From an uncultured bacterium (GTDB lineage Bacteria > CAZDME01 > JAYEMH01), in contig CAZDME010000009.1 of the NCBI GenBank assembly GCA_964506785.1, positions 1 to 32,593 on the forward strand: DNA of 32,593 nt, in the 5' to 3' direction. Under the pieces are notes generated by a model that was given only the letters and a program-made list of their open reading frames with translations, was not told the DNA's origin and made no database searches. Shown piece by piece: positions 6,850-24,986 of the stretch (positions are counted from its first letter, which is position 1; every line of letters starts with the position of its first letter). The position numbers were made by a program, and so were the translations under genes.

Positions 6850-8793
6850 TTATTTCAAAGGACTTCCTTCAAGACGCTTAATCTCCGCCCTTTCTTTATC
6901 CCTTAAATCCAACTCATCTAACTCAGCATAAATTTCCTCCAACCGGTAATGAGGAAAAAGTTCATTTTCACGTTTTAAGGAGGTTTTAAACTCAGCTATA
7001 GCCTCTTTAAACCTGCCTAAATCCCGGTAAAGGCAGCCTAAATTATAGTGAATCCGGGCATAGTCCGGGAACATTTTTTCTAAAGCCTGATATATCTTTA
7101 AAGACCTCTGATATTCACCGATAGCCCGGTAGCAATACCCCAATTTATAATAAGCGGGAAAAGAATAGGGATTGATTTTTTTTGCCTCTGAAAACTTTAT
7201 AATCGCCTGGTGAATATCCCCCTTTTCTAAGGCCTTTATCCCTTTTTTTAAAGCAACATCAGCCTGATAGGGCTTTAAAATCTTGAACGATAAAGGAAGA
7301 AATAAGACAACGGCTAAAGCGTAAAGCAAACCTTTTTTAACCGGCTTAAAAACGGGGAAAAACCTGTTTCTGAAAGTAATAAATCCTCTCCAGGAAGCCG
7401 GGACGGAGATTTCGGGATCGGATGCAATTATCCTTTTTACGGACACTGTCAGAGCGACCATTAACCAGAAAAAAACAGCAATTGCCGTCCAACGCAAAGA
7501 AGGAGAAAGCTGGCTATGCAATAAAATCCCGGCAGCCCCTAAAGTAAATGCCAAGGGATATTTTTTCCAGGCAATCGGGGCTTCCCGCCAGAGCTTTATA
7601 CCCAGGGATAAAAAAGCAAAAATTATCCAAAGAAACAAACCTAAACCCAGAAAACCCATCTCTATTGCTATTTCTAAAAATTCATTATGGGCATGGAAAA
7701 CAAGCGGGACAGGGATAATTCGAAGAGACTCAGCCGTCCGATATTGGGGGAAATAAATATGAAAAGCGCCAACCCCCCGGCCGGTAAAAGGGAAAGCCTT
7801 AATCATCTGCCAACCGCTCATCCAGAGATTTTCTCTTATAGCCATTGAAATATTGCCCGGAAAAAGAAATTTTTCTACGGAAGTAGAACTCTCTTTGGGC
7901 TCCTCAGCAAAAGAGGAATCTTCTTCTTTTAAAAACTTTTTGATATCTAAAGTCTTGATTTGCAAACGGTCTTTTCTTAAAACCTCCCTTAAAGCCTGGG
8001 AGTAAATCGTTACTGAATATAATCCGCCGACAAGCAAAAAAGGCAAAAGGGCTGAGATAAAACTTTTTACAAATTTTTTCTTGCGCCAAAAGTTCACAAC
8101 GCTACCGATATATAAAACCGCTAAATAGAAAATCAGAACCAGCCAGGCTCCCTGGCTGCGGGTCAAAAGCAAGGTTATTGCCAGCAGCATAGAAAGAAAA
8201 AACAGGGCTGCCTTCTCAAATTTAAAGTGAGAATAAAGAAAAAGAGAGAAGCTTAACGGAATGACAGCCAGGAGATAGCTGGCAAAAAAATTAGGATTGC
8301 CGAAGAAATGGAAGTAAACGGGGACGTTCCAGAAATCGAGCCTTAAGAAGGTGATACTTTTATAGAGGCTGAAAAGGCAGATTGCTCCGGCGGTAATTAG
8401 AATGCCCTGCGCAAGGAAACGAATCTCCCTTCTTTTTTTAATATTTTCGGCAACTAAAACAAAAAACAGAAAATAGCCGAGAATGGAAAGAAAAACTTGA
8501 AAGCTGGCGTATTTATATGCAGAAAAACAAGCAGAAAGGAAAGCGTAAAGAAGGAATAAACCAAAGGGGAGAATAATGGGATTCCCTGGGATTTTGATAA
8601 ATTCAGACCGGATAACCTTTAAAAGCCAGACAAATAAAAGAAAGCTCAAAGAAAGCTTGAAAAAAACCGTCTTAATTAAAACCAGATGAAACGACCGCCC
8701 GCTAAAAAGGAAAGGTAAGGCAGTTACAACAAAAAACAGCCCCCAGAAAATGATTTTCCTATAGGCTTCTAAATTCCTGCCATTCGCCGTCAT
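6850..8793 (-). CDS. O-antigen ligase-like (Wzy_C) polytopic membrane protein with C-terminal TPRs; candidate pilin O-oligosaccharyltransferase
   Basis: Many hydrophobic segments; FGNPNFFASYL, LTRSQGAW, R..LW...WQMIKAFPFTGRGVGAF, HAHNEFLEIAIEMG motifs; TPR-like repeats (AYYKLGYCY, IHYNLGCLY). Confidence 0.8.
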   Translation of the reverse strand: MTANGRNLEAYRKIIFWGLFFVVTALPFLFSGRSFHLVLIKTVFFKLSLSFLLFVWLLKVIRSEFIKIPGNPIILPFGLFLLYAFLSACFSAYKYASFQVFLSILGYFLFFVLVAENIKKRREIRFLAQGILITAGAICLFSLYKSITFLRLDFWNVPVYFHFFGNPNFFASYLLAVIPLSFSLFLYSHFKFEKAALFFLSMLLAITLLLTRSQGAWLVLIFYLAVLYIGSVVNFWRKKKFVKSFISALLPFLLVGGLYSVTIYSQALREVLRKDRLQIKTLDIKKFLKEEDSSFAEEPKESSTSVEKFLFPGNISMAIRENLWMSGWQMIKAFPFTGRGVGAFHIYFPQYRTAESLRIIPVPLVFHAHNEFLEIAIEMGFLGLGLFLWIIFAFLSLGIKLWREAPIAWKKYPLAFTLGAAGILLHSQLSPSLRWTAIAVFFWLMVALTVSVKRIIASDPEISVPASWRGFITFRNRFFPVFKPVKKGLLYALAVVLFLPLSFKILKPYQADVALKKGIKALEKGDIHQAIIKFSEAKKINPYSFPAYYKLGYCYRAIGEYQRSLKIYQALEKMFPDYARIHYNLGCLYRDLGRFKEAIAEFKTSLKRENELFPHYRLEEIYAELDELDLRDKERAEIKRLEGSPLK

Positions 8794-10344: not shown

Positions 10345-10438
10345 ACACGGATTCCAGAAACTCCCTATAGCTCGGCCGGCGAAAAGCGCGGCAAAATTGC
10401 CTGCCGGCACAGGGGCAGGCCGGGATTTTAATCCGTGT
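10345..10438. repeat. Nested inverted repeats between pilQ and rng
   Basis: ACACGGATT (10345-10353) / AATCCGTGT (10430-10438) enclosing GCCTGCC-N8-GGCAGGC (10399-10420). Confidence 0.7.
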
Positions 10439-12483
10439 CATTCAGTTTGAGTTACGGGTGGCTCTATGTCTTCCTCTGACGGCACTTCTTCTTTTTTCTC
10501 TTTGCCTTCTTCAGGTATTTCTTTTGAGGGGGCTTCCTCTGCCGCACTTAGAGATTTTTCCTGGGGCTCGGCAAGTATTTCTTTTTCCTCAGAGGGAACC
10601 TCTTCTGCCGCACCGGGCGCTTCCTCCCGGGATTCGGCAGGTTTTTCCTCTTTCTCTAAATCCTCAAGTTCTTTTTCTATCTCTTTAAAAGCCTTTTTTT
10701 CCTCTTCGCTTTTTTCTTTCTCAACTAATTCCACCCCTTCATCTCCTTCAAAACTAATCAATTCCTTAGCTATTTCCTCTTTCTCCTTTTTGCCGAAAAC
10801 AGTCGGGGTGACAAAAACAAGAATTTCCTTATCTTCTTTTTCGTGCTTCTGTTTCTTAAAAGCCCAGCCGACCAACGGAATATCGCCAAGGAAGGGAATC
10901 TTAGCGACCGTTTTAACATCCTTTTCATAAATTAAGCCGCCAATAACGACGGTATCACCGCTTTGAACCAAGACCTCAACGTCGGCTTCTTTGGTTTGAA
11001 TAATCGGGTATTCTCCCGAAATTAACTGTTTCCATTCTCCAATTTCGCTCACCTCGGGCTGAATCTTTAAAGTAACCATATCCTCTTTATTAATGGTAGC
11101 GGTCACGGTAAGCTTGGTGCCGACATCCTGGTATTCAACCGTATATTCAGTGCCGGTTTCGGTCGTCTCGGATTTTTGAATGGGAATCTTTTCACCGACG
11201 ACAATATAGGCCTCTTTACTGTGTAAAGTAGCTACCCGGGGATTAGAGAGTATTTTAGTGCCGGCATCAGTTTCCAAAGCCTGCCAGGCAATCTCAAAAT
11301 CATAGGCGTCTAAAACACCCAATTTAAAAAGCCCGCCATAACCATCGGCGCCATCATAGGCACCGGTGGTCGGAAACTGACTTTCAAAACTGCCTGCCTT
11401 ATGATCAATTTCCCGGCGCATTGCCGCCTCCTCTGCTTCGGTATCATAAGGGCCTAACTTATCAAGCATATCTTCAAGATTGTCGCCTTTATAATGGGTA
11501 TGAAGAAGTTTAGTGCCTTTAATCGCCCAGTCAATACCGACATCCTGGGTAAAATTTGTCGAGGTCTCCACAATCCGGGCTTCAATCATTACCTGGGGCG
11601 TCTGGGTATCAATGGAGAGAGCTACCTTTTTCACCTCGGGAAAATTCGAAGGAATTTCCGTAATCACTAAAGAATTGGTCCTGGCATCGATAACCACACT
11701 GCCCCTCTTCGAAAGAACCTTCTCCAGGGAATCTTTAACCTCTTTGGCATCACTGAAATTTAAGGTAACTACCTCGGTAACTAAAGGCTCTTTTTCTTTT
11801 TCTGCTTCCGCCAGCTTAAGTTCCGCCTCTTTTTCCTCGTTTAAACGGGCCACGGTGGTTACCCGAATAACATTTTCCTCTCGTTCGTAAGTGAGCTTAT
11901 TCGCCTTTAAAACCATATCCAAAGCCTGCTCCCAGGGGACATTTTCTAACCGTAAGGTTATTATCCCTTTTACCTCATCCCCCCAAATAATGTTCATCCC
12001 TGTCTGCTGGGCTAAAGCGGCTAAAACATCGGTAACATCGGCCTCCTTAAAAATTAAGTTTACTCTGCCCTGTTCGGATTCCATCGTTTCTTCGCCCGGC
12101 ACCTCCCCCGCTTCAATAAACTCCAGCTCTTCGGGAATTTCCAAATCTAATTCTTCGACAGTAAGCTCTAAAGGCTCCTCTTCAAAATCTGCGGCTGATT
12201 CTTCCTCAAAACCAATTTCTTCAAAGACGGCTTCTTCCTCGGCAGGGGCAATGTCCGGCCAAACTGCGAGTTCTTCCTGAGACGGCTGAACTACGGCCTC
12301 TTCCTGAGAGGCTTCATTTTTTTGTTCTCCTTCAAGCAGAGCCCGGCCGCTTTCTAACTCATCCACCGGGTTTTTTTCTGACGGCTCTTCTCCCTTTTGA
12401 GAAAAAGAATAGCTGGAAAACACTCCTACACTTATGAGTACCAGGAAACTTAATAACCACAGTTTTCTTTTATTCATTTCCAC
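10438..12483 (-). CDS. pilQ: Type IV pilus secretin with acidic N- and C-terminal extensions
   Basis: Signal peptide; N0 (VNLIFKEADV...LRLENVPWEQAL), N3 (IDARTNSLVI), secretin domain (PQVMIEARIVE, ILSNPRV, VVIGGLI, KIPFLGDIPLVGWAF); follows pilMNOP. Confidence 0.92.
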   Translation of the reverse strand: MEMNKRKLWLLSFLVLISVGVFSSYSFSQKGEEPSEKNPVDELESGRALLEGEQKNEASQEEAVVQPSQEELAVWPDIAPAEEEAVFEEIGFEEESAADFEEEPLELTVEELDLEIPEELEFIEAGEVPGEETMESEQGRVNLIFKEADVTDVLAALAQQTGMNIIWGDEVKGIITLRLENVPWEQALDMVLKANKLTYEREENVIRVTTVARLNEEKEAELKLAEAEKEKEPLVTEVVTLNFSDAKEVKDSLEKVLSKRGSVVIDARTNSLVITEIPSNFPEVKKVALSIDTQTPQVMIEARIVETSTNFTQDVGIDWAIKGTKLLHTHYKGDNLEDMLDKLGPYDTEAEEAAMRREIDHKAGSFESQFPTTGAYDGADGYGGLFKLGVLDAYDFEIAWQALETDAGTKILSNPRVATLHSKEAYIVVGEKIPIQKSETTETGTEYTVEYQDVGTKLTVTATINKEDMVTLKIQPEVSEIGEWKQLISGEYPIIQTKEADVEVLVQSGDTVVIGGLIYEKDVKTVAKIPFLGDIPLVGWAFKKQKHEKEDKEILVFVTPTVFGKKEKEEIAKELISFEGDEGVELVEKEKSEEEKKAFKEIEKELEDLEKEEKPAESREEAPGAAEEVPSEEKEILAEPQEKSLSAAEEAPSKEIPEEGKEKKEEVPSEEDIEPPVTQTE

Positions 12484-12868
12484 CGGTTTTGCCCTCCATC
12501 TCCCAAAATATCAGGGAGAAAGTTTTGTTATTATAACTCAAGAACACCCTGTCTCTATCAATCCTTTCAACAACAGCTCCTTCGATTTCATCTCCCGGGC
12601 CCAAAATTTCTCCGTTTATTACTACCAGAGGATTGACCGGACTCCAGAGAATCCCTTCTAATTTCATTTTTGATTTAATCGAAACCGCGCTATAGTTCTT
12701 GAGGCCGATTAAAGGAACAAAAGGGTCTTTGTATTTTCCGATTTCAAGGATAAATTCCTGAAGGTTAATATCAGAGGAATCCTCGTCTTCGTTTACTTCA
12801 TGGCTTAACGCCGGGAAGGTTAAACTCAAAAAGAAAAATAGAAAAAAACAGATAAATCTTTTAGGCAA
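12470..12868 (-). CDS. pilP: PilP-like alignment-complex protein
   Basis: Located between pilO and pilQ; KDPF motif then LEGILWS...VINGE...GDEIEG...V.RI beta-domain; N-terminal hydrophobic signal; TTG start. Confidence 0.7.
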   Translation of the reverse strand: MPKRFICFFLFFFLSLTFPALSHEVNEDEDSSDINLQEFILEIGKYKDPFVPLIGLKNYSAVSIKSKMKLEGILWSPVNPLVVINGEILGPGDEIEGAVVERIDRDRVFLSYNNKTFSLIFWEMEGKTGGNE

Positions 12869-12885: not shown

Positions 12886-13491
12886 TTAGGTTAAAGGAGG
12901 CGCTTCCTGGTACATATAGACTTCGATAATCAGCCTTACTTCATGGCGGCTCGGGTCTTCGTTACAACTCCCCTTAATTTCGAAACTAATCACTTTGACA
13001 AATCTTTTAGTTTGTTCCAAACGGAATAGAAACTTCTCCAGGTCATGGAAACCACAGTGCATTTTAACCTCTATCGGCAGGCGTAAATAGGCCCCTTCAC
13101 CACCCTTGCCGGCTAATTCTTCAATCGGACTGGTCCGCTGCGGCCGGATAGAAACAAATTCAATATCGGCTAATTCGACAATATCAGTTAATTCCTCTAA
13201 AAGAACAGGAATATCTTTTTCTCTCGGCAATTTTTTCTCGTATTGAATCAAAGATTCCTTTATGTCATCGATTTCGGCAAGTAACTGCGACTTGCGGGCA
13301 ATCTTGGCCTTAGCCGTAGAAATTTTCTTTTCAAGAGACCCCGCCCGGGAACGATAAGTACGGATAGCCCTGCTCTGCGGCCGGAATATCAAAAAACAAC
13401 TGCCAAAGATAAGGAAAAAAATAAGAACAACTATGGCAACCAGTTTGTTAAGCTGATGTTTTTCTAATTCAGGAATCTTTATTTTAATCAC
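12886..13491 (-). CDS. pilO: Type IV pilus assembly protein PilO
   Basis: TM, coiled coil, KLPREKDIPVLL, LPIEVKMHCGFHDLEKFL...RFVKV; GTG start. Confidence 0.9.
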   Translation of the reverse strand: MIKIKIPELEKHQLNKLVAIVVLIFFLIFGSCFLIFRPQSRAIRTYRSRAGSLEKKISTAKAKIARKSQLLAEIDDIKESLIQYEKKLPREKDIPVLLEELTDIVELADIEFVSIRPQRTSPIEELAGKGGEGAYLRLPIEVKMHCGFHDLEKFLFRLEQTKRFVKVISFEIKGSCNEDPSRHEVRLIIEVYMYQEAPPLT

Positions 13492-13552: not shown

Positions 13553-14212
13553 TTATTTCAGCCTGCAGGCTAATTCAAAATCCATAGCATCCTGCTCTTG
13601 AATGACCTTTCTCTGGGTAAAAATCAATTCTATATCAGAGAAATCTTGAAAAAAATCTTTATCGTCCTTAAGGCTGGTCATAAACTTTCCCACCGAATCA
13701 ATCATCTCTTCACCGGAGAGCGAAATAACCGTCCCTTTAAGAATTATAGTTTGAAAACTTTTTTTAACCCAGGCCACTTGAGAAGCCTCTTTTTTCTTTC
13801 TTCCCTTCCTGGGATCGGGTTTGACCGGCACCTTTACTTTTTCAGTCCGGGTGGTTATATTAAAATCAGCCAGCCAAATAGAAGGGAGAACCTGTCTGCT
13901 CAGTTGATAAAGCTTCCTTGACCAAAGAAGCCTGCTCTGGGCTAAATCCTCTATGGCCTTCTTTTTGCCGTCTAATTCTACCCTAAGCACCTCCAGTCCC
14001 AAAACTTCCTTCTCTTCTTTTCTAATTACATCCCATTCTTTATTTAAACGGCTAAATCTTGCCGATTGAACTTTTACCTGGACACCTAAAACCAAAGAGA
14101 TAACCACAATAATAACCAGCACCCCGACGGCTATGCAAAGAAGCGTCAGAATGTAGGTATTAAATTGACGTTTTCTCTTTAATTCTTCCGGAAGAAGATT
14201 TATTTTTATCAT
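13553..14212 (-). CDS. pilN: Type IV pilus assembly protein PilN
   Basis: Start re-assigned to ATG 14212 (MIKINLLP, the PilM-binding INLLP motif), ATGA overlap with pilM stop; TM, coiled coil, LPSIWL. Confidence 0.9.
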   Translation of the reverse strand: MIKINLLPEELKRKRQFNTYILTLLCIAVGVLVIIVVISLVLGVQVKVQSARFSRLNKEWDVIRKEEKEVLGLEVLRVELDGKKKAIEDLAQSRLLWSRKLYQLSRQVLPSIWLADFNITTRTEKVKVPVKPDPRKGRKKKEASQVAWVKKSFQTIILKGTVISLSGEEMIDSVGKFMTSLKDDKDFFQDFSDIELIFTQRKVIQEQDAMDFELACRLK

Positions 14213-15291
14213 ATAACTTCTAGAGCCCGAAGAGCTAACCCTGTCCCCACACATAAATAAGGCCGGCTGGCTTGGAGATTTTCTTCAGAGAAACGCTTGT
14301 CTATCTTGAAGTTTTTAAATGGATCCCAGCAGGAAACAGGCGAATCTAATATTCTACCGAAGAAATTTTCAATCCCTTTAAGTTTGGCCGTCCCACCGCT
14401 TAAGAAAACCTTAAAAGGCATTTTTTCTACGGCCATGGTCTGGCTTTCGTAATAATCAAAAGAACGCCGGATTTCATTAGCCAGGCTTTCCAATACCGGA
14501 GAAATAGATTCAAAAGACGGGGAAGATTCCCCCTCTATCTTTTCTTTTAACCTTTCCGCCTGTTTAAAAGCAACGTTCAGCCTTTTTGAAATACCGTCGG
14601 TAAGATTGTTCCCCCCCATAGGAATATCCCGGCTGAATTTAGGAATCCCCTTATTTAAAATGCTTACATTGGTGAGACTTGCCCCTATATTGACTAAAGC
14701 GGTCGCCTGGTGAAGATTTGCCTCTTCGTTATTGGCATAAAGAAAAGCATTAATCAAGGCAAAAGAATCAACATCGATTATAACCGGCTTTAAACCCTGA
14801 CTTTCCAGAAGTTCGATATGTTTCTGGATAAAATTACGCTGGGCAGCCACCAGTAAAACCTTCATCTTTTTGCTTTCCTGGTTCTTGGCCTGGTCTAAAA
14901 CTTGAAAATCTAAAATTACATCTTTTAAATCAAAAGGAATGTGGGGCTTGGCCTCAAACTTTACCGCGCTTTCTAAATCGTTTTTAGACATTTGAGGAAG
15001 GTCTATATAACGGACAACTACCGCCGGCCCGGATATTCCGGTAACTACTTCATTATTGGCCAAATTAGCTTTGGCCACGGCCCGCTTCAAGGCTTCACTC
15101 AGGGCATCGCCTGCTTTTCCCTCTTTAACCGGCTCTTCGGAAATCGGCTCAATAAAAAATCTATCTACAAGAAAACCCTTATCTCCCTTAGATATACAGA
15201 CTATTTTTATGCTATTAGTGCCAATATTAAGGCCAGCAGCAACACCGGACCTTAAAGATTTCCTGAAAGGTAGATTGGGTAATTTTAGCAT
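14209..15291 (-). CDS. pilM: Type IV pilus assembly protein PilM (actin-like)
   Basis: GLNIGTNSIK, EAKPHIPF, VLLVAA, IDVDSFALIN, VNIGAS, GGNNLT, LSGGTAKL, GLALR. Confidence 0.95.
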   Translation of the reverse strand: MLKLPNLPFRKSLRSGVAAGLNIGTNSIKIVCISKGDKGFLVDRFFIEPISEEPVKEGKAGDALSEALKRAVAKANLANNEVVTGISGPAVVVRYIDLPQMSKNDLESAVKFEAKPHIPFDLKDVILDFQVLDQAKNQESKKMKVLLVAAQRNFIQKHIELLESQGLKPVIIDVDSFALINAFLYANNEEANLHQATALVNIGASLTNVSILNKGIPKFSRDIPMGGNNLTDGISKRLNVAFKQAERLKEKIEGESSPSFESISPVLESLANEIRRSFDYYESQTMAVEKMPFKVFLSGGTAKLKGIENFFGRILDSPVSCWDPFKNFKIDKRFSEENLQASRPYLCVGTGLALRALEVI

Positions 15292-15441: not shown

Positions 15442-15472
15442 AAAAAGGGGATAGCCTTTCGGGCTATCCCCT
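15442..15472 (-). terminator. Strong intrinsic terminator after the pilin array
   Basis: AGGGGAUAGCC-CGAAA-GGCUAUCCCCU followed by UUUU; perfect 11-bp stem. Confidence 0.92.
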
Positions 15473-15505: not shown

Positions 15506-15883
15506 TTAATAGCTGGAGTAAGGCAGCTCATGGTCATCATATGTATCGGCAGTGGAATTAGTGCCGATACTACAGGTAGGTACAGCATTAACAGCGTTAA
15601 GACTGTACGTACCACTCGAAGGACACTCAGGTTCTATCTTCAAAAAGTCAGACACCAAATCTGTTGTCCCTGGCGCATCAGTTTGTGCCGCACCAGTGCT
15701 CATCGCCCAACGTTCCTTGGCTCCTTCGATTTGCTTCAAGTTAGCAACACAGCTATTTGCTCTCGCTTCTTCTCGGGCGCGTAAAAAGTTAGGAATAGCT
15801 ATAGCAACAAGTAATCCAATAATCGCCACCACGATCATGATTTCAACGAGAGTAAAACCCCGCATACCTTTAAGCTTTCTCAT
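15506..15883 (-). CDS. Type IVa pilin 5 (probable major pilin)
   Basis: MRKLKGMRG|FTLVE class III signal; start re-assigned to ATG 15883, 7 nt after GGAGGT (the track's GTG is part of the SD); directly precedes the terminator. Confidence 0.9.
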   Translation of the reverse strand: MRKLKGMRGFTLVEIMIVVAIIGLLVAIAIPNFLRAREEARANSCVANLKQIEGAKERWAMSTGAAQTDAPGTTDLVSDFLKIEPECPSSGTYSLNAVNAVPTCSIGTNSTADTYDDHELPYSSY

Positions 15884-15909
15884 CTTTCTCACCTCCCTCC
15901 CCTCTAATT

Positions 15910-15982
15910 TAGGTGATAGGCTATAGGACGTAGGTTATAGGTCCTTCCCCTACTGCCTATTACCCAACCAACCTACTACCTA
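15910..15982. repeat. 7-nt-period inverted micro-array between pilin 4 and pilin 5
   Basis: TAGG at 15910, 15917, 15924, 15931, 15938; CCTA/CCCA at 15949, 15956, 15963, 15972, 15979. Confidence 0.88.
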
Positions 15983-16416
15983 TTATAAAGAACATGGTCA
16001 TCCCAGCTGTCTGCGCTGTCATTCGTGCCAATATCACAAGTAGGTAAATTATCAGTGTTGTCAATGGTGTAGTTACCGCCCGAGGGACACCTGGGCTCTG
16101 TCTTTAAAAAAGCCGGAACTAAATCTGACATCTCCGCTTCGTCCCAACGCCCCACATCCATAGCTACCGCCCATCTTTCCTTCGCCCCTTCTATCTCTTT
16201 AAGATTGGCGATACAAGCTTTAGCTTTGGCTTCTTCCCGGGCCCGGACATAATACGGGGCGACTATCGCCGCTAAAACCCCGATAATCAAAACCACTATC
16301 ATTATCTCAACCAGGGTAAACCCTTCTTTAGCGTATAGCAAATATCGTATAGCGTTTAGTAACCCTTTTTTAACTCCCTGTGTTTTGTTTCTTCCCGTTA
16401 ACTCTTCTAAAGGCAC
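15976..16416 (-). CDS. Type IVa pilin 4 (extended leader)
   Basis: KEG|FTLVEIM, P22, hydrophobic alpha1; GGAGGT SD before GTG start. Confidence 0.9.
   Translation of the reverse strand: MPLEELTGRNKTQGVKKGLLNAIRYLLYAKEGFTLVEIMIVVLIIGVLAAIVAPYYVRAREEAKAKACIANLKEIEGAKERWAVAMDVGRWDEAEMSDLVPAFLKTEPRCPSGGNYTIDNTDNLPTCDIGTNDSADSWDDHVLYNR
16319..16367. repeat. Five heptamer units flanked by a 7-bp direct repeat within the pilin 4 leader
   Basis: AACCCTT (16319-16325), CTTTAGC GTATAGC AAATATC GTATAGC GTTTAGT, AACCCTT (16361-16367). Confidence 0.85.
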
Positions 16417-16492
16417 CCCTCACCTCCATCTTATCCAATAATTGCGAAATCAACAATTAAAATTTCAAAATAATATTTTCCCAATTTTAACT

Positions 16493-16849
16493 TTAGAAAA
16501 CGTGGTCATCCCATGTCACGGCTGTGGTGGCAGTACCAATACTACAAGTGGGAATGGCATTGACCGCATTAATGCCATAATTTCCGGAAGCCGGGCAGCT
16601 GGGCCACTCTTCTAAATAAGAAGATAAGTTTGTGCTATTTGGCGTAGCCGACTCAGCGGCATCCGTATCTAAAGCCCACTGCTGTTTAGCCCCATGAATC
16701 TGGTGAAGGTTATTAACACAGACTTTAGCCCGGGCTTTTTTCCTGGCATTGATGAAATTAGGAATAGCCATACTAAGAATAAGACCAATAATCCCGATAA
16801 CGACCATAATCTCAACCAGGGTGAAACCCGATATTCTTTTCTTATTCAT
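16493..16849 (-). CDS. Type IVa pilin 3
   Basis: MNKKRISG|FTLVE; start re-assigned to ATG 16849, 7 nt after GGAGGT. Confidence 0.9.
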   Translation of the reverse strand: MNKKRISGFTLVEIMVVIGIIGLILSMAIPNFINARKKARAKVCVNNLHQIHGAKQQWALDTDAAESATPNSTNLSSYLEEWPSCPASGNYGINAVNAIPTCSIGTATTAVTWDDHVF

Positions 16850-16865
16850 CTTTTTCACCTCCCGT

Positions 16866-17222
16866 TTATTCTAATACATGTCCTTCTTGAGTGCAAGTAG
16901 GATTTTCACCTGCTTTTTGCAGTGTATAAGAATCGCTTGTTTTTGTCGCCGGACAGACTGGTTTCTTCTCCAGATAATCGGTAACGATGTCACTCCAGGT
17001 CATTTCAGTCCCGGTAATTTGATTTTCATCCAAAACCCATTGGTCTTTAGCCATTTTAATCAACCAGAGATTGCCAATACAGCTTTTCGTCTCTGTCTTC
17101 TCTCTCATCTTGGGAATATTGGGAATAGCAAACGCGGCCAGAATACCGATGATAATGAGGACAATCATTATCTCTACCAAAGTTACCCCTCTCTGTTTTC
17201 CCTTTTTCACCTTTCTCACCAT
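16866..17222 (-). CDS. Type IVa pilin 2 (Val at +1)
   Basis: KKGKQRG|VTLVEIM, E5, P22. Confidence 0.88.
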   Translation of the reverse strand: MVRKVKKGKQRGVTLVEIMIVLIIIGILAAFAIPNIPKMREKTETKSCIGNLWLIKMAKDQWVLDENQITGTEMTWSDIVTDYLEKKPVCPATKTSDSYTLQKAGENPTCTQEGHVLE

Positions 17223-17224
17223 CC

Positions 17225-17620
17225 TTAAGGATAAACATGGTCATCCCAAGTGTAAGCACTGCTATTTGTTCCCACGGAACAAACCGGGTGGGTATCCGCA
17301 TCCCAATCCGCATAGGCGCCTCCCGTAGGACAATCAAGGACCTCCTCCGTATAACCCTGGTTATAGAGTGTCGTGGCATTAATGTCAGTAACCCCAGAGC
17401 CCTGCTCCAGCCGATAGGCCTGTCCGGCTTCATAAAGTAATTTCATATTATTTATACAGGTGGTTGCCTGGGCTCGCCGGCGGGCATTGATAAAGTTGGG
17501 AATGGCTAAAGCAAGAATAATACCGAATATGCCCACTACGACCATCAACTCTACCAATGTGAAGCCCCCTTTGCCATATATCCGGGGAAATCCCAGGGCT
17601 AACCTTTTTAAAGTCCTCAT
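17225..17620 (-). CDS. Type IVa pilin 1
   Basis: GKGG|FTLVELM, E5, G14, P22. Confidence 0.9.
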   Translation of the reverse strand: MRTLKRLALGFPRIYGKGGFTLVELMVVVGIFGIILALAIPNFINARRRAQATTCINNMKLLYEAGQAYRLEQGSGVTDINATTLYNQGYTEEVLDCPTGGAYADWDADTHPVCSVGTNSSAYTWDDHVYP

Positions 17621-17671: not shown

Positions 17672-18919
17672 TTATCCCACCAGCTGAACCATTCTAAATA
17701 TAGGCAGGAACATGGCTATGGCCATAGAGCCAACAACAATGCCTAAAAAAGCAATTAAAACCGGCTCAATCAAAGAAGTCAGGCCGGAAATGGCCGCTTC
17801 AACCTGGGTATTGTAAAAATCAGAGATTTTAGCCAGCATCGTCTCCAATGCCCCGGTTTCTTCCCCCACGGCAATCATCTCTACCACCATCGGCGGGAAA
17901 ACCTTGCTTTCCTTCAAAGGGATAGCAATATTTTCCCCCTCCCTGATGCCCAATCGAGCCCGCTCGATATCCCTCTCAATAACTTTATTTCCTGAGGTCC
18001 GGCCGACAATCTCTAAGGCCAAAAGTATCGGCACCCCCCCCTTAAGCAAGGTGCTTAAAGTTTTGGAAAATCTGGACATGGCTAACTTTTGCAGCAAAGG
18101 CCCAAAAATGGGTAGACGTAGTTTGAACTGATCGAATTTTAAACGCCCCTGCTCAGTGTGAATGGCCCGGCTGCCAATAATGAAAATCAGCACCAGGGCG
18201 ATAAAAGCATATAGAAAATGTTTCTGCATAAACTCACTTGTGAAAATGAGTACCTGGGTCGGCTTCGGCAAAGTGGCTTCCAACCCGGTAAAAATGGTTT
18301 TAAAAACCGGCACTACTTTAAGAAGAAAAACCAGGGTCACCACCACCGCCATGCCGCTAACAACGGCCGGATAAACTAAAGCCATTCGCACCTTTCTTCT
18401 CATCGCACTCATAGATTCCAGATAATTAGCCACTTCATTCAGAATAATGTCTAACATACCGCTGACCTCCCCGGCGCGAACCATACTGACAAAAAAAGGA
18501 GAAAAAGTCCGGGGATGATTAGCCAGGGCTTCAGATAAACTTAAACCCTTCTCCACATCCTCTTTCACCCGGTGAATTACCCCGGCCAAAACCTTATCTT
18601 CAATCTGTTTCTCCAGAATAAACAAACCCTGCACCAGAGGTAACCCGGCATTAACCATAGTGGCTAACTGCCGGGTGAAAATTACCAGGCTGTCTAATTT
18701 TACCTTCTTTTTACCCAGAGACGAGCCGAAAGAAGCAGGCCCTTTTTTACTCTTCGAGGAAAAAGGCAAGGTGAAACCTTTGCCTGCCTGCTGGCAGGAA
18801 ATCAAAATATAACCCTTGCTGTGTAGAATTTTATTTAAGGTTTCTTCGTTCTCGGCTTCCTGCTGATTTTCAAAACGATGTCCGTTTTGGTCAATAGCCG
18901 TATAGCGAAATAAAGACAT
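17672..18919 (-). CDS. pilC: Type IV pilus inner-membrane platform protein (GspF/PilC)
   Basis: FTRQLATMVNAGLPL, MVRAGEVSGML, ALVYP, LPKPTQ, MIAVGEETGAL, LIEP, AMFLPIF. Confidence 0.96.
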   Translation of the reverse strand: MSLFRYTAIDQNGHRFENQQEAENEETLNKILHSKGYILISCQQAGKGFTLPFSSKSKKGPASFGSSLGKKKVKLDSLVIFTRQLATMVNAGLPLVQGLFILEKQIEDKVLAGVIHRVKEDVEKGLSLSEALANHPRTFSPFFVSMVRAGEVSGMLDIILNEVANYLESMSAMRRKVRMALVYPAVVSGMAVVVTLVFLLKVVPVFKTIFTGLEATLPKPTQVLIFTSEFMQKHFLYAFIALVLIFIIGSRAIHTEQGRLKFDQFKLRLPIFGPLLQKLAMSRFSKTLSTLLKGGVPILLALEIVGRTSGNKVIERDIERARLGIREGENIAIPLKESKVFPPMVVEMIAVGEETGALETMLAKISDFYNTQVEAAISGLTSLIEPVLIAFLGIVVGSMAIAMFLPIFRMVQLVG

Positions 18920-18993: not shown

Positions 18994-20691
18994 TTAAGCC
19001 GTTACCCTTAGAATCTCTTCTAAGCTGGTGGTGCCGTCTTTTACCCTTCGCAAACCACACTGCCTGAGAGGAACCATTCCTTCTTGAATCGTCTTATTTT
19101 TTACGTCCACCTCGGGAGCGCGTTGAACAATCATATTTTTTATTCCCTCGGAAAGAGAGAAGGCTTCCACCACGGCAAACCTGCCCCGATAGCCGGTGTT
19201 GCTGCAACGCGGGCAGCCCCGGGGACGGTAAAGGACTAAATCCTTGCCGCCTTCTTTTTTAAATCCGTACTTATCCATAATTTCCGCTGAGGCCTTATAG
19301 GATTCCCGGCAATCAGGACAAAGTTTACGAGCCAGCCGCTGGGCCATAACACAAACCAAAGAAGAAGCAATGAGAAAAGGCTCCACCCCCATATCGATTA
19401 AACGGGTTATCGCCCCAACAGCATCGTTGGTATGCAAGGTGCTGAAAACCAAATGCCCGGTCAAACCGGCTTTAATGGCCACATCGGCCGCTTCACCGTC
19501 ACGGATCTCCCCGACAAGAATAACATTCGGCGCCTGGCGGAGAATAGAGCGCAGTCCGCTGGCAAAGGTAAGGCCGATATCCTGATTAATCTGAATCTGG
19601 TTAACTCCGTCTAATAGATATTCAACCGGGTCCTCGACAGTAATAATGTTTTTATCCGGGGTGTTTATTTTGGATAAGGCCGAATAAAGAGTGGTTGTCT
19701 TTCCGCTGCCAGTCGGGCCGGTAACTAAAATTATCCCGTAAGGATGAGTTATTGCCTCAGAAAAAGTTCCGTAAGGTTCTTTACTAAAGCCGAGTTTGGC
19801 CAAATCTAAAGTCAAACTTGCCTTATCGAGAATTCTTAAGGTTACCCGTTCGCCAAAAGCGGTCGGGATGATGGCTACCCGGAAATCAACTTCCCGGCCA
19901 GCGACTTTTATTTTAAACTGCCCGTCTTGAGGCAAACGACGCTCGGCAATATCCAGACGAGATAAAATTTTTATCCGGGAAACAATCGCCGGCCGAAGCT
20001 GCTTGGGAGGAGAAATCGTTTCGTGTAATACCCCGTCAATACAATAGCGAACCCTTACCTTGTCCTCAAAAGGCTCAATGTGAATATCGCTGGCTTTCTT
20101 TTTGACCCCTTCACCCAGAATCAAGTTGACAATTTTAATAACCGGGGCTTCCTCGACTTCTTTCATTAACTGGTCAAGATCGAGTTTTTCTTCAGCCGTC
20201 GGGGCGGCAACCACATTCAAATCAGCCCCTTTTATCGCATCCTCCATCGTCCCCCAAGGGGTATAATATTTGCTTATGGCGTCAAGAATCTCCTCGCTGG
20301 TAGTAATTATCGGGTCAATGTTATACCCGGTCATTACCTTGATATCGTCCATAGCAAAGATGTTCAAAGGATCGGCCATAGCTACAGTTAAGGTTTTCCC
20401 CACTTTTGATACCGGAATTAACTGGTAGTGCCGGGAAACATGTTCGGGAACAATTTTTAAAACTTCGGGATTGATTTTATACCGGCTTAAATTTATCGGC
20501 GGGATATTAAGATGCTGGCTTAAACAGGCAAGCAAATCCTTCTCGCTAATAAAACCCAGTTTAATCAGAATCTGGCCTAACCTTCCCCCCTCTTTATCCT
20601 GAATCTCAAGGGCCTTTTTCAACTGTTCCTTGGTAATTACCTTCCCTTCAATCAATATTTCGTTTAGCCTTTTACGCAGCGACCTAACCAT
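18994..20691 (-). CDS. pilB: Type IV pilus extension ATPase with MshEN-like N-terminus
   Basis: ASDIHIEP, RRLPQDG, Walker A GPTGSGKTT, TVEDPVEY, VILVGEIRD, His boxes TGHLV/STLHTN, Zn motif CPDC...CPRC. Confidence 0.96.
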   Translation of the reverse strand: MVRSLRKRLNEILIEGKVITKEQLKKALEIQDKEGGRLGQILIKLGFISEKDLLACLSQHLNIPPINLSRYKINPEVLKIVPEHVSRHYQLIPVSKVGKTLTVAMADPLNIFAMDDIKVMTGYNIDPIITTSEEILDAISKYYTPWGTMEDAIKGADLNVVAAPTAEEKLDLDQLMKEVEEAPVIKIVNLILGEGVKKKASDIHIEPFEDKVRVRYCIDGVLHETISPPKQLRPAIVSRIKILSRLDIAERRLPQDGQFKIKVAGREVDFRVAIIPTAFGERVTLRILDKASLTLDLAKLGFSKEPYGTFSEAITHPYGIILVTGPTGSGKTTTLYSALSKINTPDKNIITVEDPVEYLLDGVNQIQINQDIGLTFASGLRSILRQAPNVILVGEIRDGEAADVAIKAGLTGHLVFSTLHTNDAVGAITRLIDMGVEPFLIASSLVCVMAQRLARKLCPDCRESYKASAEIMDKYGFKKEGGKDLVLYRPRGCPRCSNTGYRGRFAVVEAFSLSEGIKNMIVQRAPEVDVKNKTIQEGMVPLRQCGLRRVKDGTTSLEEILRVTA

Positions 20692-21160
20692 CTTTTTTTT
20701 CCTCTCCGTTTGATTTTCTGTAATTATCGTCGAGCGCCTTTGAAATCTCTCTGGAAGTGGTAATGAAAATTTCTATATTAGCGCCGGTAAGCTTTTCCAT
20801 TTCCTCAACGACATTGATATCTAAAGGGTTAACCATGGCTAAGGTAAGAATGTTCCCTATCTTGTCAACCGGTATAAGCAAATTTTTACGGGCGGTATCC
20901 TCCGGGATAAGTTTGAGAACTTCCCGGTTAATGGAATAATTCTCTAAGGGTAAATAGGGAAAACCGTATTGAACCATGATGCAGTTGACGATATCTTCTT
21001 CAGCCGCATAGCCAAGTTTTACCAAACATTCGCCTAAAAAACCCCCGGCTTCTTTCTGCATATCCAAAGCCTTTTCCAACTGCTCCTCAGTAATAACCTT
21101 CTCCTCCAGAAGCAGGCGGCCTAATTCTTTCTTTACCAGTTTTTTTAAATGTTCAATCAT
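20684..21160 (-). CDS. Stand-alone PilB/GspE N-terminal domain protein (MshEN-like plus N1D), no ATPase
   Basis: Collinear with the adjacent PilB N-terminus (LIPVDKIGNILTLAMVNPLD vs LIPVSKVGKTLTVAMADPLN); 8-nt overlap with pilB start. Confidence 0.88.
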   Translation of the reverse strand: MIEHLKKLVKKELGRLLLEEKVITEEQLEKALDMQKEAGGFLGECLVKLGYAAEEDIVNCIMVQYGFPYLPLENYSINREVLKLIPEDTARKNLLIPVDKIGNILTLAMVNPLDINVVEEMEKLTGANIEIFITTSREISKALDDNYRKSNGEEKKDG

Positions 21161-21203: not shown

Positions 21204-21231
21204 TTCCGTCCTCTACCTTCTGTCTTCTATT
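21204..21231. repeat. 7-nt-period micro-array at pilT 3' end
   Basis: TTCCGTC CTCTACC TTCTGTC TTCTATT; the last unit contains the pilT stop codon. Confidence 0.65.
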
Positions 21232-22300
21232 TTTTTTCCGGTTTTACCGAACTCAAAAGCCTTTCCAAATCTTCAGGCTCCGTGGTCCGCCAAACATTTT
21301 CGTAGCTGATAAGATTCCGGCTGTAAAGGTTTACCAGGGACGTATTCATGGTGTGCATCCCTTCCCGCACCCCGGTCTGAATGGCCGAATAAATCTGATG
21401 GGTTTTACCCTCGCGGATTAAACTGCGTATGGCCTGGGTAGCGACCATAACCTCACAAGCCAAAACCCTTCCTTTACCGCCGACTTTGGGAATTAACTGC
21501 TGAGAAAAAACCGCTTGAATGACAAAAGATAACTGCACTTTAATTTGAGCCTGGAATTGAGAAGGAAAAATGTCGATAATCCGGTTTATCGTCTGAACGG
21601 CATCGTTGGTATGCAAGGTAGTAAAAACCAAATGGCCTGTTTCGGCAATAGTCATGGCCGCTCTCACCGTCTCTAAATCACGCATTTCACCAATGAGAAT
21701 GACATCCGGATCCTGCCTTAAAACATATTTAAGGGCGTTGGCAAAAGAATAGGTGTCACTGCCAATCTCTCTCTGGCTAACCACACTTTTCCTGTGCTGA
21801 TGCACATATTCGATAGGGTCTTCAACGGTAACTATGTGGCAGCGACGCTCCTGGTTAATAAAATCGGTCATTGAAGCAAGAGAAGTCGATTTCCCGCTGC
21901 CGGTAGCTCCGGTGACTAAAACCAAACCTTTGGGTTTACGGACTATCTCCCGGGTAACCGGAGGCAAGCCCAGTTCTTCGAAATTAAAAATTTTTAGAGG
22001 GATGCGGCGGATCGCCGCCGAGACATAGCCCCGGTGATGGTAAATATTTACCCGAAACCGGCTAAGCCCGGCAATTTCAAAGGAAAAATCCAATTCGTGT
22101 TTTAATTCAAAACGCTTTTTTTGCTCTTCAGAAATAATACTGTAAATAAGTTCCCGGCAGGTCTCAGGCGTTAAAACGTCAAAATCGGTAGGAATCAAAT
22201 TTTCATCTATCCGCAGCTGGGGAGAAACACCGGCGATAAGATGCAGGTCGGATGCTTCTCTCTCGACAATTAAATTCAATAACTCTTTGAATTTGACCAT
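21227..22300 (-). CDS. pilT: Type IV pilus retraction ATPase
   Basis: ASDLHL, RFRVN, GATGSGKST, TVEDPIEY, QREIG, RQDPDVILIGEMRD, AIRSLIRE motif, GMHTMN. Confidence 0.96.
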   Translation of the reverse strand: MVKFKELLNLIVEREASDLHLIAGVSPQLRIDENLIPTDFDVLTPETCRELIYSIISEEQKKRFELKHELDFSFEIAGLSRFRVNIYHHRGYVSAAIRRIPLKIFNFEELGLPPVTREIVRKPKGLVLVTGATGSGKSTSLASMTDFINQERRCHIVTVEDPIEYVHQHRKSVVSQREIGSDTYSFANALKYVLRQDPDVILIGEMRDLETVRAAMTIAETGHLVFTTLHTNDAVQTINRIIDIFPSQFQAQIKVQLSFVIQAVFSQQLIPKVGGKGRVLACEVMVATQAIRSLIREGKTHQIYSAIQTGVREGMHTMNTSLVNLYSRNLISYENVWRTTEPEDLERLLSSVKPEKK

Positions 22301-22341: not shown

Positions 22342-23334
22342 TTAAAATCCTAAAACTTGCCCCGGGCTTTCTTTACGGGCGCGGGAGACGGCTTCCTTCA
22401 CTTTACCGACTAAGTCGGCGCTTTCCACTCCGTCCAACGGGGAGGAGACAACCCCGCCATTTACCACCAGCTCAAGTTGCTCATGAGAAATAAAACCCTG
22501 CACTTTCTTCAGAAGCAATTCCCCCTCAACCAGGGATTCTTTTTTATTCTTCTCAGGAAGAATAACCATAAATTCACCCGGCTGGGTGTGGGCGACTTTT
22601 TCAACACCTTTTAGACTTTGCCTTATTACCCTGCTTACCTCTTTAAGGAGATAATTCGTCTTGGCAACTCCTTGAGTTTCCTCAAACTTTTTTATCGGGA
22701 CAATTTCTAAAACGAATAAACTGCAGGGACGCTGAAAAAGCATCGCCCGTCTAATTTCTTCTTTCCAGCGGTTGCGGAAATACTGGGCGTTATAAAGGCC
22801 GGTTACTTCATCCCTTACCGATAAGGTGCGCGTCTTCTCCAACAATTGGTTCTTTTCCTTTTCAGAGACAATTAAGCGCTTCTCATATTGCTCTAACTCC
22901 TGCATATTCTGCTGCAGGCGGGCAATGACAAAATTCATCGTGTCGCGTAATTCTCCTATTTCATCTTCGCTCATCACCTTTATCTGCTGGGCAAAGTTGC
23001 TATTCTGGACAATCGTTCTGGCCTCAGCAGTCAGCTTTAAAATGCGCTGGATTATGTTTCGGACGAAATATAGGCCGACGAGAGAAAGGGCAACTACCAG
23101 TACAACCACGCAAAGTAACTGAAAAGGTAGTCTTTCCCTGGGGAAAATGCTAAGAAAGCCAGGGAGGTTGCTGGATATACGGACGCGCTGGTACAGTTGG
23201 AAAGCCTGCTGCTGTAAAACCATGAAAAGAAGCAGAATCGGAATAATCGTCCCTAAAGCGAAAGTAGCCCATAATTTATGCCGTAAACCCCGCGGAGCCA
23301 TCGCCCATTTTTTTCTAAATTCTTGATAAGACAT
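22342..23334 (-). CDS. Membrane protein with two TM, HAMP, coiled coil and degenerate GGDEF domain
   Basis: Two hydrophobic segments, HAMP signature EDEIGEL, DEVTGLYN entry motif; GGDEF position reads QPGEF. Confidence 0.85.
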   Translation of the reverse strand: MSYQEFRKKWAMAPRGLRHKLWATFALGTIIPILLLFMVLQQQAFQLYQRVRISSNLPGFLSIFPRERLPFQLLCVVVLVVALSLVGLYFVRNIIQRILKLTAEARTIVQNSNFAQQIKVMSEDEIGELRDTMNFVIARLQQNMQELEQYEKRLIVSEKEKNQLLEKTRTLSVRDEVTGLYNAQYFRNRWKEEIRRAMLFQRPCSLFVLEIVPIKKFEETQGVAKTNYLLKEVSRVIRQSLKGVEKVAHTQPGEFMVILPEKNKKESLVEGELLLKKVQGFISHEQLELVVNGGVVSSPLDGVESADLVGKVKEAVSRARKESPGQVLGF

Positions 23335-23400: not shown

Positions 23401-23823
23401 TTAGAAATGAACCTCCATTGCTCTGGGTGGACAAGCTTTAATGCATAACTCGCAGGCAATACATTTAGAATTATCAAAATTGACTTTTCTGGTCTTGAAA
23501 TCAAAGGTTAAGGCTTGAGTAGGACAAATGGTCACACAGGCGCCGCAATGGGTGCATCTTTCTTCGTTTCGGACAATATCCTGGCTGAGGAGCTGAATCT
23601 TTAGTCCGATTTTCTCCAGAAATTTTACCCCCTCCTGATATTTTTTTTCCTGACCGCTTAATTCTAAAACCAAAAGCCCCTCTTCTTCCGGGGTAACCGA
23701 GGCCCTAAGGATATTAAATTCTAAATCAAAATCCTTGACCAGGCGGCAAATAATGGGTTGATCGACTAATTGTTGAGGAAAACGCAGAACGATTTTTTTG
23801 GTTACCTTAAGTTTTTCAGACAT
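23401..23823 (-). CDS. NIL domain-2x[4Fe-4S] ferredoxin (MA1822-like partner of aspartate-semialdehyde sulfurtransferase)
   Basis: LRFP...QPII..LVKDFDLEFNILRA NIL domain; CTHCGACVTICP and CIACELCIKACP; start re-assigned to ATG 23823, 2 nt after the upstream stop. Confidence 0.9.
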   Translation of the reverse strand: MSEKLKVTKKIVLRFPQQLVDQPIICRLVKDFDLEFNILRASVTPEEEGLLVLELSGQEKKYQEGVKFLEKIGLKIQLLSQDIVRNEERCTHCGACVTICPTQALTFDFKTRKVNFDNSKCIACELCIKACPPRAMEVHF

Positions 23824-23825
23824 GT

Positions 23826-24986
23826 TCAGGCTTTCCTTCCCGGAAGAAATTCCACCGGCTCGGTTAAGAAAAATTCCTTTTTTAAAATCCAATTTTTTAA
23901 AATTTCACAAATCTCCCGCGCCTTAAAATAGCTGGAAAGAGAAGTCGTGGGGACATCCTTCCCTTTTACCCTAATCTTTCCCGACTTTAGCTCCTGGTAA
24001 TTTACCTCACCTAAAATCCGGCCGGTCCCCTGAGGATAATCACGGCTGTAATCGACTACCTGCGTCCAGATATCGGCGTCTTTCACCGCGGCAAATTTAA
24101 TTACCTCTTCGTCTAAAACCGGAAGAGGAATACCAATACCGACGGTGAGAGTAGCCCCATAACCGAGGAAACTGGCACCCACCAGCCATTTATCGCTCAT
24201 TCCCTTTAGATCGCCTTTAACGGATAATGTCCCCGCAGGAATATACGGAACCCCGTTTTTCTTTCTGGCTTCCCGGGGAGAATGCTGGGTGCCCGGGCCA
24301 ACAACATAACCTATTCCTCCGCCAAGAAAAATCCTGGTTCCCAGCCCAACCGTTCGATAATAAGGGTCATTCAGTAAAGGGGAAAGCTGTCCGGCACTGC
24401 AATAACTGGCGCTGCCTAAGTTGGGCTTTAGCATTCCCATATAGGTATAGATAATTTTATCGGAAAGATTGACGGCGCAATTATAGTTCTGATAGGCATT
24501 GCGGGGATTGAAAAGAAAAGCTTCGCTCATTTCCTTTAAAGAAATTTCAGTCTCAAGTGTATCCAGAGGATAACAATCCGTGCGGCAACCAATAGCTTTA
24601 AGTTTTACCTTTTTGCCAGCGACCAAATCTTCAATAACATGCCCGCCTCCATATCTAAATTCTCCCGGATAAATTCTGTTAGCCGGATCAGTCGTGACTA
24701 ATTCAGTTACCCCGATATAGACATCAACGGCAGCCAGGCCGCAATAAACAGGCACATCATTGAGCCAGGCCCTTTGCATTTTCGTTTTAGGCCTGGTATG
24801 CCCCAGACAGAGAAAAGCCCCTGAGGAACACATCGGCCCAAAGGTAGCCGTGGTAACCACGTCTACTTCCCGGGCAACCCGGGCCGTTCCTTTCTTCTCA
24901 ACCAGGTCGATAATCTCCTCGGCGTTAACGACTACCGCTTTACCCTCTTTTATTTTCTCATTAATCTCGGCGATGGTTCTAATCAT
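23826..24986 (-). CDS. DUF39 homocysteine biosynthesis protein (L-aspartate semialdehyde sulfurtransferase, MA1821/MJ0100-like), lacking CBS domains
   Basis: RTIAEINEKI, DVVTTATFGPMCSSGA, YGGGHVIEDL, TDCYP, NPRNAYQNY, SAGQLSPLLNDP; paired with NIL-ferredoxin. Confidence 0.9.
   Translation of the reverse strand: MIRTIAEINEKIKEGKAVVVNAEEIIDLVEKKGTARVAREVDVVTTATFGPMCSSGAFLCLGHTRPKTKMQRAWLNDVPVYCGLAAVDVYIGVTELVTTDPANRIYPGEFRYGGGHVIEDLVAGKKVKLKAIGCRTDCYPLDTLETEISLKEMSEAFLFNPRNAYQNYNCAVNLSDKIIYTYMGMLKPNLGSASYCSAGQLSPLLNDPYYRTVGLGTRIFLGGGIGYVVGPGTQHSPREARKKNGVPYIPAGTLSVKGDLKGMSDKWLVGASFLGYGATLTVGIGIPLPVLDEEVIKFAAVKDADIWTQVVDYSRDYPQGTGRILGEVNYQELKSGKIRVKGKDVPTTSLSSYFKAREICEILKNWILKKEFFLTEPVEFLPGRKA

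Follow-up and report, generated by a model that had tools for sequence, protein, structure and literature searches.

A tandem array of five type IVa pilins with a family-wide Cys3-His motif and a putative structural zinc site in an uncultured bacterium

It was in a 32,593-nucleotide stretch of an uncultured bacterium (GenBank assembly GCA_964506785.1, contig CAZDME010000009.1, positions 1 to 32,593 of the forward strand; GTDB lineage Bacteria; CAZDME01; JAYEMH01), the whole of which we call the window, that five tandem pilin genes were found, each encoding a short prepilin-type protein with three cysteines and a histidine near its C-terminus, within a complete type IVa pilus operon that lies entirely on the minus strand. 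Most likely, with a probability that we put at about 0.7, these proteins are five paralogous subunits of a retractile type IVa pilus, their heads being stabilised by one tetrahedral metal ion, probably Zn2+; we infer that the four side chains converge, that they bind a metal, that this metal is zinc, and that all five proteins enter the fibre. The Cys3-His motif is not special to this locus, and by sequence comparison it defines a large family, an uncurated head module of ~75 residues that is spread over several phyla.

The five open reading frames (ORFs) follow one another head to tail on the minus strand from 17620 to 15506 (Table 1), all of them intact and with ribosome-binding-site-like sequences, and each product begins with a short basic leader that ends in Gly, followed by F/V-T-L-V-E and a hydrophobic helix (G|[FV]TLVE). 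All five pass Pfam N_methyl PF07963 (28.2–33.4 bits vs. a cut-off of 21.2) and exceed the cut-off of TIGR02532, and the mature pilins are 106–116 residues long, with one head each. The leader of pilin 4 has 32 residues before the Gly-Phe cleavage site, vs. 11–19 in the other four, and the leader of P0130, a representative of the family described below, is also long; a near-twin of pilin 5 in the database begins at an ATG three codons into the listed frame. Counted from mature residue 1, every pilin contains three Cys and no more, the first being C36 in 5/5, the second (C78/78/77/78/78 in pilins 1–5) being followed by Pro in every case, and the third (C95/98/94/95/95) always lying within P-[TV]-C, while the His comes at +14 from the last Cys (DDH) in pilins 1, 3, 4, and 5 and at +5 (EGH) in pilin 2, from which a nine-residue loop is missing. 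The spacing between the proposed ligands is thus 41–42, 17–20, and then 5 or 14 residues. In the five-way alignment, C, CP, Y, P-x-C, and H are among the invariant columns, and none of the five has the C-terminal Cys pair of a disulfide-bonded D-region. The first-pass annotation of this DNA, made from the letters alone, had described five tandem pilins with three Cys each and a His near the C-terminus, with C36 in all of them, the CP and P[T/V]C motifs, DDH in four and EGH in pilin 2, had noted that the His is kept despite the loop deletion, and had remarked that an odd Cys count does not resemble a simple disulfide D-region; alignment and residue count bear out all of this description. The paralogues are only 31–43% identical to pilin 1 over their full length, and recent duplication therefore does not explain the motif; the variation among them is greatest in the Cys3-to-His loop (5 or 14 residues) and in the alpha-beta loop. 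The eleven other prepilin-motif ORFs of the same genome lack the Cys3-His pattern, and two of these, GspG-like, are Cys-free.

No curated Pfam or NCBIfam model covered the head in a scan of the five pilins. A head-only profile without the pilin helix (A2), searched against 1.84 billion cluster representatives, gave 5666 representatives at E≤1e-3, 1213 at ≤1e-10, and 11 at ≤1e-30, and a word-indexed search with pilin 5 scored at least 8000 candidates, at least 7954 of them with E≤1e-3. The best 120 homologues of pilin 5 are 54–98% identical to it, and those with names come from metagenome-assembled genomes (MAGs) of Candidatus (Ca.) Ratteibacteria, Omnitrophota, and Armatimonadota. Scanning species genomes yielded 606 pattern matches, 438 of which were confirmed as relatives. 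In 28 of the 80 loci kept there is a short pilin, or more than one, in which C36 is followed by two further Cys and then by His, and these 28 loci come from Planctomycetia, many Verrucomicrobiota, Lentisphaerae, Kiritimatiellae, Armatimonadetes, Sumerlaeota, and Ca. Acidoferrum. All three species genomes of the window's own phylum in the collection carry 6–10 copies, mostly in tandem arrays. The genome of the window has seven copies, namely the five in the array and one on each of contigs C8 and C21, these last two each having a fourth Cys, in one case in the hydrophobic helix and in the other in the alpha-beta loop; against its own genome, the head profile finds pilin 1 with E 1.3e-40, pilin 2 with 4.9e-31, pilin 3 with 4.4e-42, and pilin 4 with 2.0e-43. 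Neighbours in the ESM Atlas are ‘hypothetical protein’ clusters with N_methyl only. A precomputed label, PF26697.1, stands on three of the 120 listed homologues (P0067, P0103, P0118), and its meaning was not found in the Pfam copy or the literature searched. Our literature search, for which many subscription papers were out of reach, returned no description of a zinc-binding pilin family beyond references to PilJ, the Clostridioides (C.) difficile pilin discussed below.

An odd number of Cys may also be explained by a disulfide between two of them, as in the D-region, with the third one free and the His kept for packing or for subunit contact. Diderm pilin heads are usually stabilised by disulfides, but we consider this explanation rather unlikely here, given the odd Cys count in all five pilins and a conservation in which the three Cys and the His are equally invariant, with no conserved pair plus a free extra Cys. 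In an alignment of 143 pilin-type family members (A3), C48, C90, and C107 are invariant and H121 is retained in at least 90% of the rows. We also aligned 364 detected domains to the head profile and kept the 329 that span positions 11–70, 120 of them from close homologues and 209 from representatives at ≤50% identity; the order C, C, C, H is present in 120/120 of the former and in 206/209 of the latter. Of the three exceptions, one (P0250) comes from a shift in the alignment, both Cys and His being present; P0170 and P0204 lack the His and carry instead a Cys at +3 from the third Cys (CxxC), the swap being found in all three repeats of P0170. A position that exchanges His for Cys, and not for an unrelated residue, while all else stays the same behaves as a metal ligand does and not as a packing residue does; the swap fits a metal ligand, and not a disulfide with a spare thiol. 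The His is also confined in place, since it falls within 25 residues after the third Cys in 209/211 representative domains, compared with 38/211 for a control window of 25 residues before the third Cys and 70/211 for one of 25 residues after the first Cys, and the His frequency between C1 and C3 in the representative domains is 0.010. Family members differ in the distance from C3 to the His, which can be as short as 2 or as long as 20 residues. The view that the four residues behave as one ligand set family-wide is supported by these alignments.

The disulfide explanation can also be weighed against the enzymes that the organism encodes. In the genome of the window, which has 1.38 Mb and is 91.4% complete, searches for DSBA, DsbB, VKOR, and Thioredoxin_4 gave no match, and searches for haem-copper and bd oxidases likewise gave none, with the control genomes responding in both cases, which fits an anaerobe without periplasmic disulfide formation. 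Families of the DsbA/DsbB/VKOR type are also missing from 3/5 other carrier genomes. This comparison comprises six genomes, four without and two with VKOR/DsbA-like genes, and the sample is too small for a correlation.

Among solved structures, it is PilJ of C. difficile that comes closest. When three family profiles were compared with the sequences of the PDB, namely A2, A3, and A4 (a profile of non-pilin repeat proteins, and hence without the pilin N-terminus), the only match in the head region was 4ixj, the PilJ entry, with E-values of 0.019 (A3), 0.12 (A2), and 0.0014 (A4). The HMMER alignments of A2 and A4 place PilJ Cys beneath the first Cys of the family (C36) and beneath the CP Cys, that of the knuckle pattern C-x-G-G-x-Y; going by SEQRES offsets and the numbering of the entry, these would be residues 36 and 81 of PilJ. 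PilJ reportedly binds a structural zinc through three Cys and one His, so that the nearest solved relative would hold zinc at the aligned Cys, which speaks against the disulfide explanation. The AlphaFold2 model of pilin 5 has a mean predicted local distance difference test score (pLDDT) of 89.1 and consists of a long helix (15–66), a short helix, and a small head with very little sheet. VIA-align ranked 4ixj_B first of 48161 chains for this model (Z 7.6, root-mean-square deviation (rmsd) 2.3 A, 72 residues), superposing model residues 39–111, a range that spans all three Cys, on chain residues 27–115; EpsG (Z 6.8) and Thermus PilA4 (Z 5.8) came next, and the top 16 rows are mostly pilins or pseudopilins, which supports an alpha-beta pilin fold for the head. 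We treat PilJ as the nearest known relative and a working analogue and do not assign the window pilins to the PilJ family. PilJ is a minor pilin of a monoderm with a dual-pilin fold, according to PMC4471445 and PMC9556784, whereas the window pilins are single-domain, of major-pilin size, present in five copies, and encoded in a diderm operon with a secretin. PMC9556784 contains no passage about a metal in PilJ; in PMC6916266 and PMC6497953, zinc comes up only where a study of the prepilin peptidase is cited, and in PMC6630890 only with unrelated nanomaterials.

Several observations speak against a zinc-clamped head and have to be set beside the evidence above. The HMMER alignments to PilJ end before the third Cys and the His, and the single heads of P0092 and P0141, compared in order to extend the alignment to these two residues, gave no PilJ match. 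A Z of 7.6 is within the range typical of models without a clear relative, Foldseek gave no match in the PDB at E≤0.001 (PilJ stood at rank 5, with E 0.47), and the Pfam family PilJ_Pilin (PF22473) was matched at E≤1 by only two of the 143 members, the best with 13.9 bits vs. a cut-off of 26, and by none of the five window pilins. In the two Cys4 variants, the four Cys could in principle pair as two disulfides, and a VKOR joined to a DsbA-like domain is present in 2/5 other carriers (a Verrucomicrobiae MAG and an Armatimonadetes MAG), so that the module is not confined to organisms without oxidative folding; both facts also count in favour of the disulfide explanation.

With the metal site as the preferred reading, the proposed mechanism would be as follows. 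The head, a minimal pilin fold of ~75 residues that follows the N-terminal hydrophobic helix, would fold outside the cytoplasm after insertion into the membrane and capture one Zn2+. The putative ligands are Cys36 on the C-terminal half of alpha1, the Cys of a C-P-x-G-G knuckle that precedes the first strand, the Cys of a P-x-C turn that comes after the hairpin, and the His on the C-terminal tail. Such a site would pin the C-terminal tail onto alpha1, a tail that would correspond to the disulfide-bonded D-region in proteobacterial pilins and to the Ca2+ site in pseudopilins, and a bound metal would need no oxidising periplasm to fix it. What sets the paralogues apart on the exposed surface is probably the Cys3-to-His loop together with the alpha-beta loop, and the differences in these loops may be why several subunit genes are kept.

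As to which metal might be bound, the first-pass annotation had proposed Zn or another metal such as Fe. Its metal-binding claim gains from the C, C, C, H order, the His-to-Cys swaps, and the missing Dsb and VKOR families, but Fe has found no support. A redox-active centre, either mononuclear Fe or a CDGSH-like 2Fe-2S cluster, in a fibre that carries electrons or senses redox state seems extremely improbable to us. The organism appears to be anaerobic and comes from sediment and seawater metagenomes, and Cys3His ligation is also used by the 2Fe-2S CDGSH proteins; nothing positive supports such a centre. The CDGSH motif is compact, C-x-C ... P-x-C-D-G-[SAT]-H, and the ligand spacing of the window pilins differs from it, with no Pfam match to the CDGSH-type 2Fe-2S domain at E≤1. 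The five pilin sequences show neither aromatic-rich nor haem motifs, and a C3-to-His distance that ranges so widely is easier to reconcile with a tolerant structural site than with a tuned redox centre. Pilins are inserted by a Sec-type route and then fold outside the cytoplasm, where no pathway of Fe-S assembly is known. The choice of PilJ as the comparison, also made in that annotation, has stood, PilJ being the closest solved relative both by sequence profile and by fold. In contrast, nothing points to the functional metal array that it had imagined along the filament; a structural site in every subunit would be enough to give one metal per subunit.

Compared with other known systems, the window pilins share with the proteobacterial type IVa pilins (PAK PilA, 1oqw; Neisseria PilE, 2hi2) and with Thermus PilA4 (6xxd) the class III leader G|F-T-L-x-E, the long alpha1, the pilin fold, and the assembly machinery. 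Those pilins have bigger heads, in which the sheet is four-stranded and the C-terminal D-region is closed by a disulfide, whereas the window heads have ~75 residues, very little sheet, and three Cys plus a His in place of the Cys pair. The GspG/EpsG/PulG pseudopilins (4lw9, 5wda) are similar in size and fold, the pilin model matching with Z 6.8 and a model of the non-pilin repeats with Z 7.9, and according to PMC4376143 they fix their C-terminal region with a metal, Ca2+, and not with a disulfide. Their ligands are oxygen donors for Ca2+, not thiolates, and the genome holds separate Cys-free GspG-like genes. We rejected an assignment to GspG, given that TIGR01710 reaches 40.7–48.9 bits vs. a cut-off of 88.85 and covers profile positions 1 to ~70 only; the equivalogs for GspG, ComGC, and Myxococcus PilA all match the N-terminal helix only, with 37–50 bits vs. 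cut-offs of 75–400. DUF1559 (PF07596) was also rejected, its match to residues 39–55 of pilin 5 having 13.7 bits vs. 23.3 and covering profile positions 3–19 of 268, with the rest of the 268-position domain absent from the window pilins. The same model is weakly matched over its first ~20–40 positions by 46 of the 143 A3 members (best E 0.0041), and the stretch concerned is alpha1-C, which carries Cys36-x2-N-L; this hints that the very large DUF1559 prepilin-type family of Planctomycetota and Verrucomicrobiota shares the Cys-bearing helix.

The place of the five genes in the operon bears on a further alternative, namely that they do not encode fibre subunits of one pilus and are instead alternative or non-assembled pilin-like proteins, such as phase-variable cassettes or pseudopilins of a secretion system, in which case the motif would have no bearing on a filament. 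Five near-equal paralogues are unusual for a single major pilin, and the best partial NCBIfam matches include GspG and ComGC. We nevertheless consider it very unlikely, since all five genes stand between pilC and pilM in an operon with PilB, PilT, and the secretin and are closed by one terminator, their reading frames and ribosome-binding-site-like sequences are intact, the GspG, ComGC, and PilA models stop at the N-terminal helix far under their cut-offs, a separate set of GspG-like genes exists elsewhere in the genome, and tandem arrays are also present in both other genomes of the phylum. A prepilin peptidase is likewise encoded elsewhere in the genome (Peptidase_A24 on contig G000:C4, 66.6 bits, over the cut-off).

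Table 1. Coordinates of the pilin array, the pilus operon, and neighbouring genes in the window, with two family members found on other contigs of the genome; ligand codons refer to mature numbering and to the proposed ligands.
Feature	Position	Strand	Codons of proposed ligands	Remarks
Pilin 1	17225..17620	-	C36 17456-17458, C78 17330-17332, C95 17279-17281, H109 17237-17239	131 residues, 19-residue leader; N_methyl E 4.3e-7
Pilin 2	16866..17222	-	C36 17079-17081, C78 16953-16955, C98 16893-16895, H103 16878-16880	118 residues, 12-residue leader, Val at +1; short-loop variant ending EGH
Pilin 3	16493..16858	-	C36 16718-16720, C77 16595-16597, C94 16544-16546, H108 16502-16504	121 residues, 11-residue leader
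Pilin 4	15976..16416	-	C36 16213-16215, C78 16087-16089, C95 16036-16038, H109 15994-15996	146 residues as listed, 32-residue leader
Pilin 5	15506..15892	-	C36 15749-15751, C78 15623-15625, C95 15572-15574, H109 15530-15532	128 residues as listed; likely start is the ATG at 15883
Terminator-like hairpin	15446..15472	-		strong; 11 pairs, 7 G-C, T run; closes the pilin array after pilin 5
Near-consensus promoter-like site	15391-15362	-		ahead of pilM
PilM	14209-15291	-		PilM_2 E 1.2e-68
PilN-like (PilN-sized) protein	13553-14254	-		no Pfam match
PilO	12886-13491	-		PilO E 3.1e-16
Small T2SSB-like protein	12470-12868	-		
Secretin	10438-12483	-		Secretin E 4.5e-47
Wzy_C (O-antigen-ligase-type) membrane protein	6850-8793	-		647 residues, C-terminal TPR repeats
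PilC-type platform protein	17672..18919	-		directly upstream of pilin 1; T2SSF E 1.2e-58, two stretches
PilB-type assembly ATPase with MshEN domain	18994..20691	-		T2SSE E 5.7e-138, MshEN E 3.1e-19
Free-standing MshEN-domain protein	20684-21160	-		158 residues; between pilT and pilB
PilT-type retraction ATPase	21227..22300	-		357 residues; T2SSE E 1.3e-48, core only
HAMP-GGDEF protein	22342-23334	-		just upstream of pilT
HcyBio sulfur-incorporation enzyme and NIL-ferredoxin partner	23401-24986	-		
Thi4-family gene	24995-25765			follows the HcyBio/NIL-ferredoxin pair
Further family member	G000:C8:26725-27159	-		outside the operon
Further family member	G000:C21:18919-19248	-		outside the operon

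The free-standing MshEN protein, the MshEN domain of PilB itself, and the HAMP-GGDEF protein suggest that the pilus is under the control of cyclic di-GMP (c-di-GMP). An Rfam scan of the window found no family at the gathering score, and hence no c-di-GMP riboswitch in it, and the sigma-54 pattern has four matches in the window, a number that was also reached in 15/100 shuffles. The HcyBio/NIL-ferredoxin pair points to an oxygen-independent homocysteine pathway, consistent with the missing terminal oxidases. Downstream of the secretin come first an RNase E/G gene and then the Wzy_C gene; enzymes of the Wzy_C type glycosylate pilins in Pseudomonas and Neisseria.

The module is also found in proteins that are not pilins, and these are the highest-scoring representatives, exported or lipoprotein-like and with 2–8 tandem copies of the head, other non-pilins having one or two copies at the C-terminal end of proteins of 600–1060 residues. 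Such carriers are P0121–P0125, P0127, P0128, P0139, and P0180, and in each copy Cys, Cys, Cys, and His are kept. Among the 150 representatives listed, 36 are short with the prepilin motif, 33 are short without it, and 81 are long or multi-copy and without it, in a list that is ordered by summed score and thus over-represents multi-copy proteins, while some of the 33 short motif-less ones may be fragments. The three repeats of P0124 are modelled as separate units with high confidence (block pLDDT ~90), the linkers between them scoring low, and the best structural matches of this model are once more pseudopilins and pilins, namely EpsG (Z 7.9), PilJ (Z 7.2 but rmsd 9.7 A), and PulG (Z 6.7). That the repeats of P0124 are predicted to fold confidently on their own is as would be expected of a small metal-stapled unit.

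In a broader proposal, which we judge unlikely, the Cys3His mini head would be an old, self-folding extracytoplasmic metal module that forms the main fibre, with one metal per subunit, in many lineages (Omnitrophota-like bacteria, Verrucomicrobiota, Planctomycetota, Armatimonadota, and others) and has been re-used as strings of 2–8 beads in other proteins. Thiolate-zinc sites release their metal on oxidation, and, if this proposal were true, the stability of the fibre could be switched by zinc supply or by oxidants, which would be a new kind of pilus control.

In summary, the textbook stabilisers of the pilin head are a C-terminal disulfide and, in pseudopilins, calcium, and the single zinc-binding example that we know of is a minor two-domain pilin of a Gram-positive pathogen. 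We rate PilJ as the precedent for the principle, and, as what is new, its extension to single-domain, major-pilin-sized subunits of diderms, in several phyla, and to non-pilin repeat proteins. If the zinc-clamped head is real, a metal-thiolate site would be a third solution to the fixing of the pilin head, and the rule for the main subunit in a large and mostly uncultured part of the bacteria, which would explain how force-bearing fibres are made in reducing habitats without Dsb enzymes. It would also provide annotation with a new and easily recognised pilin family, whose head is at present without a curated model, and structural work with a very small, probably soluble, metal-stapled pilin head.

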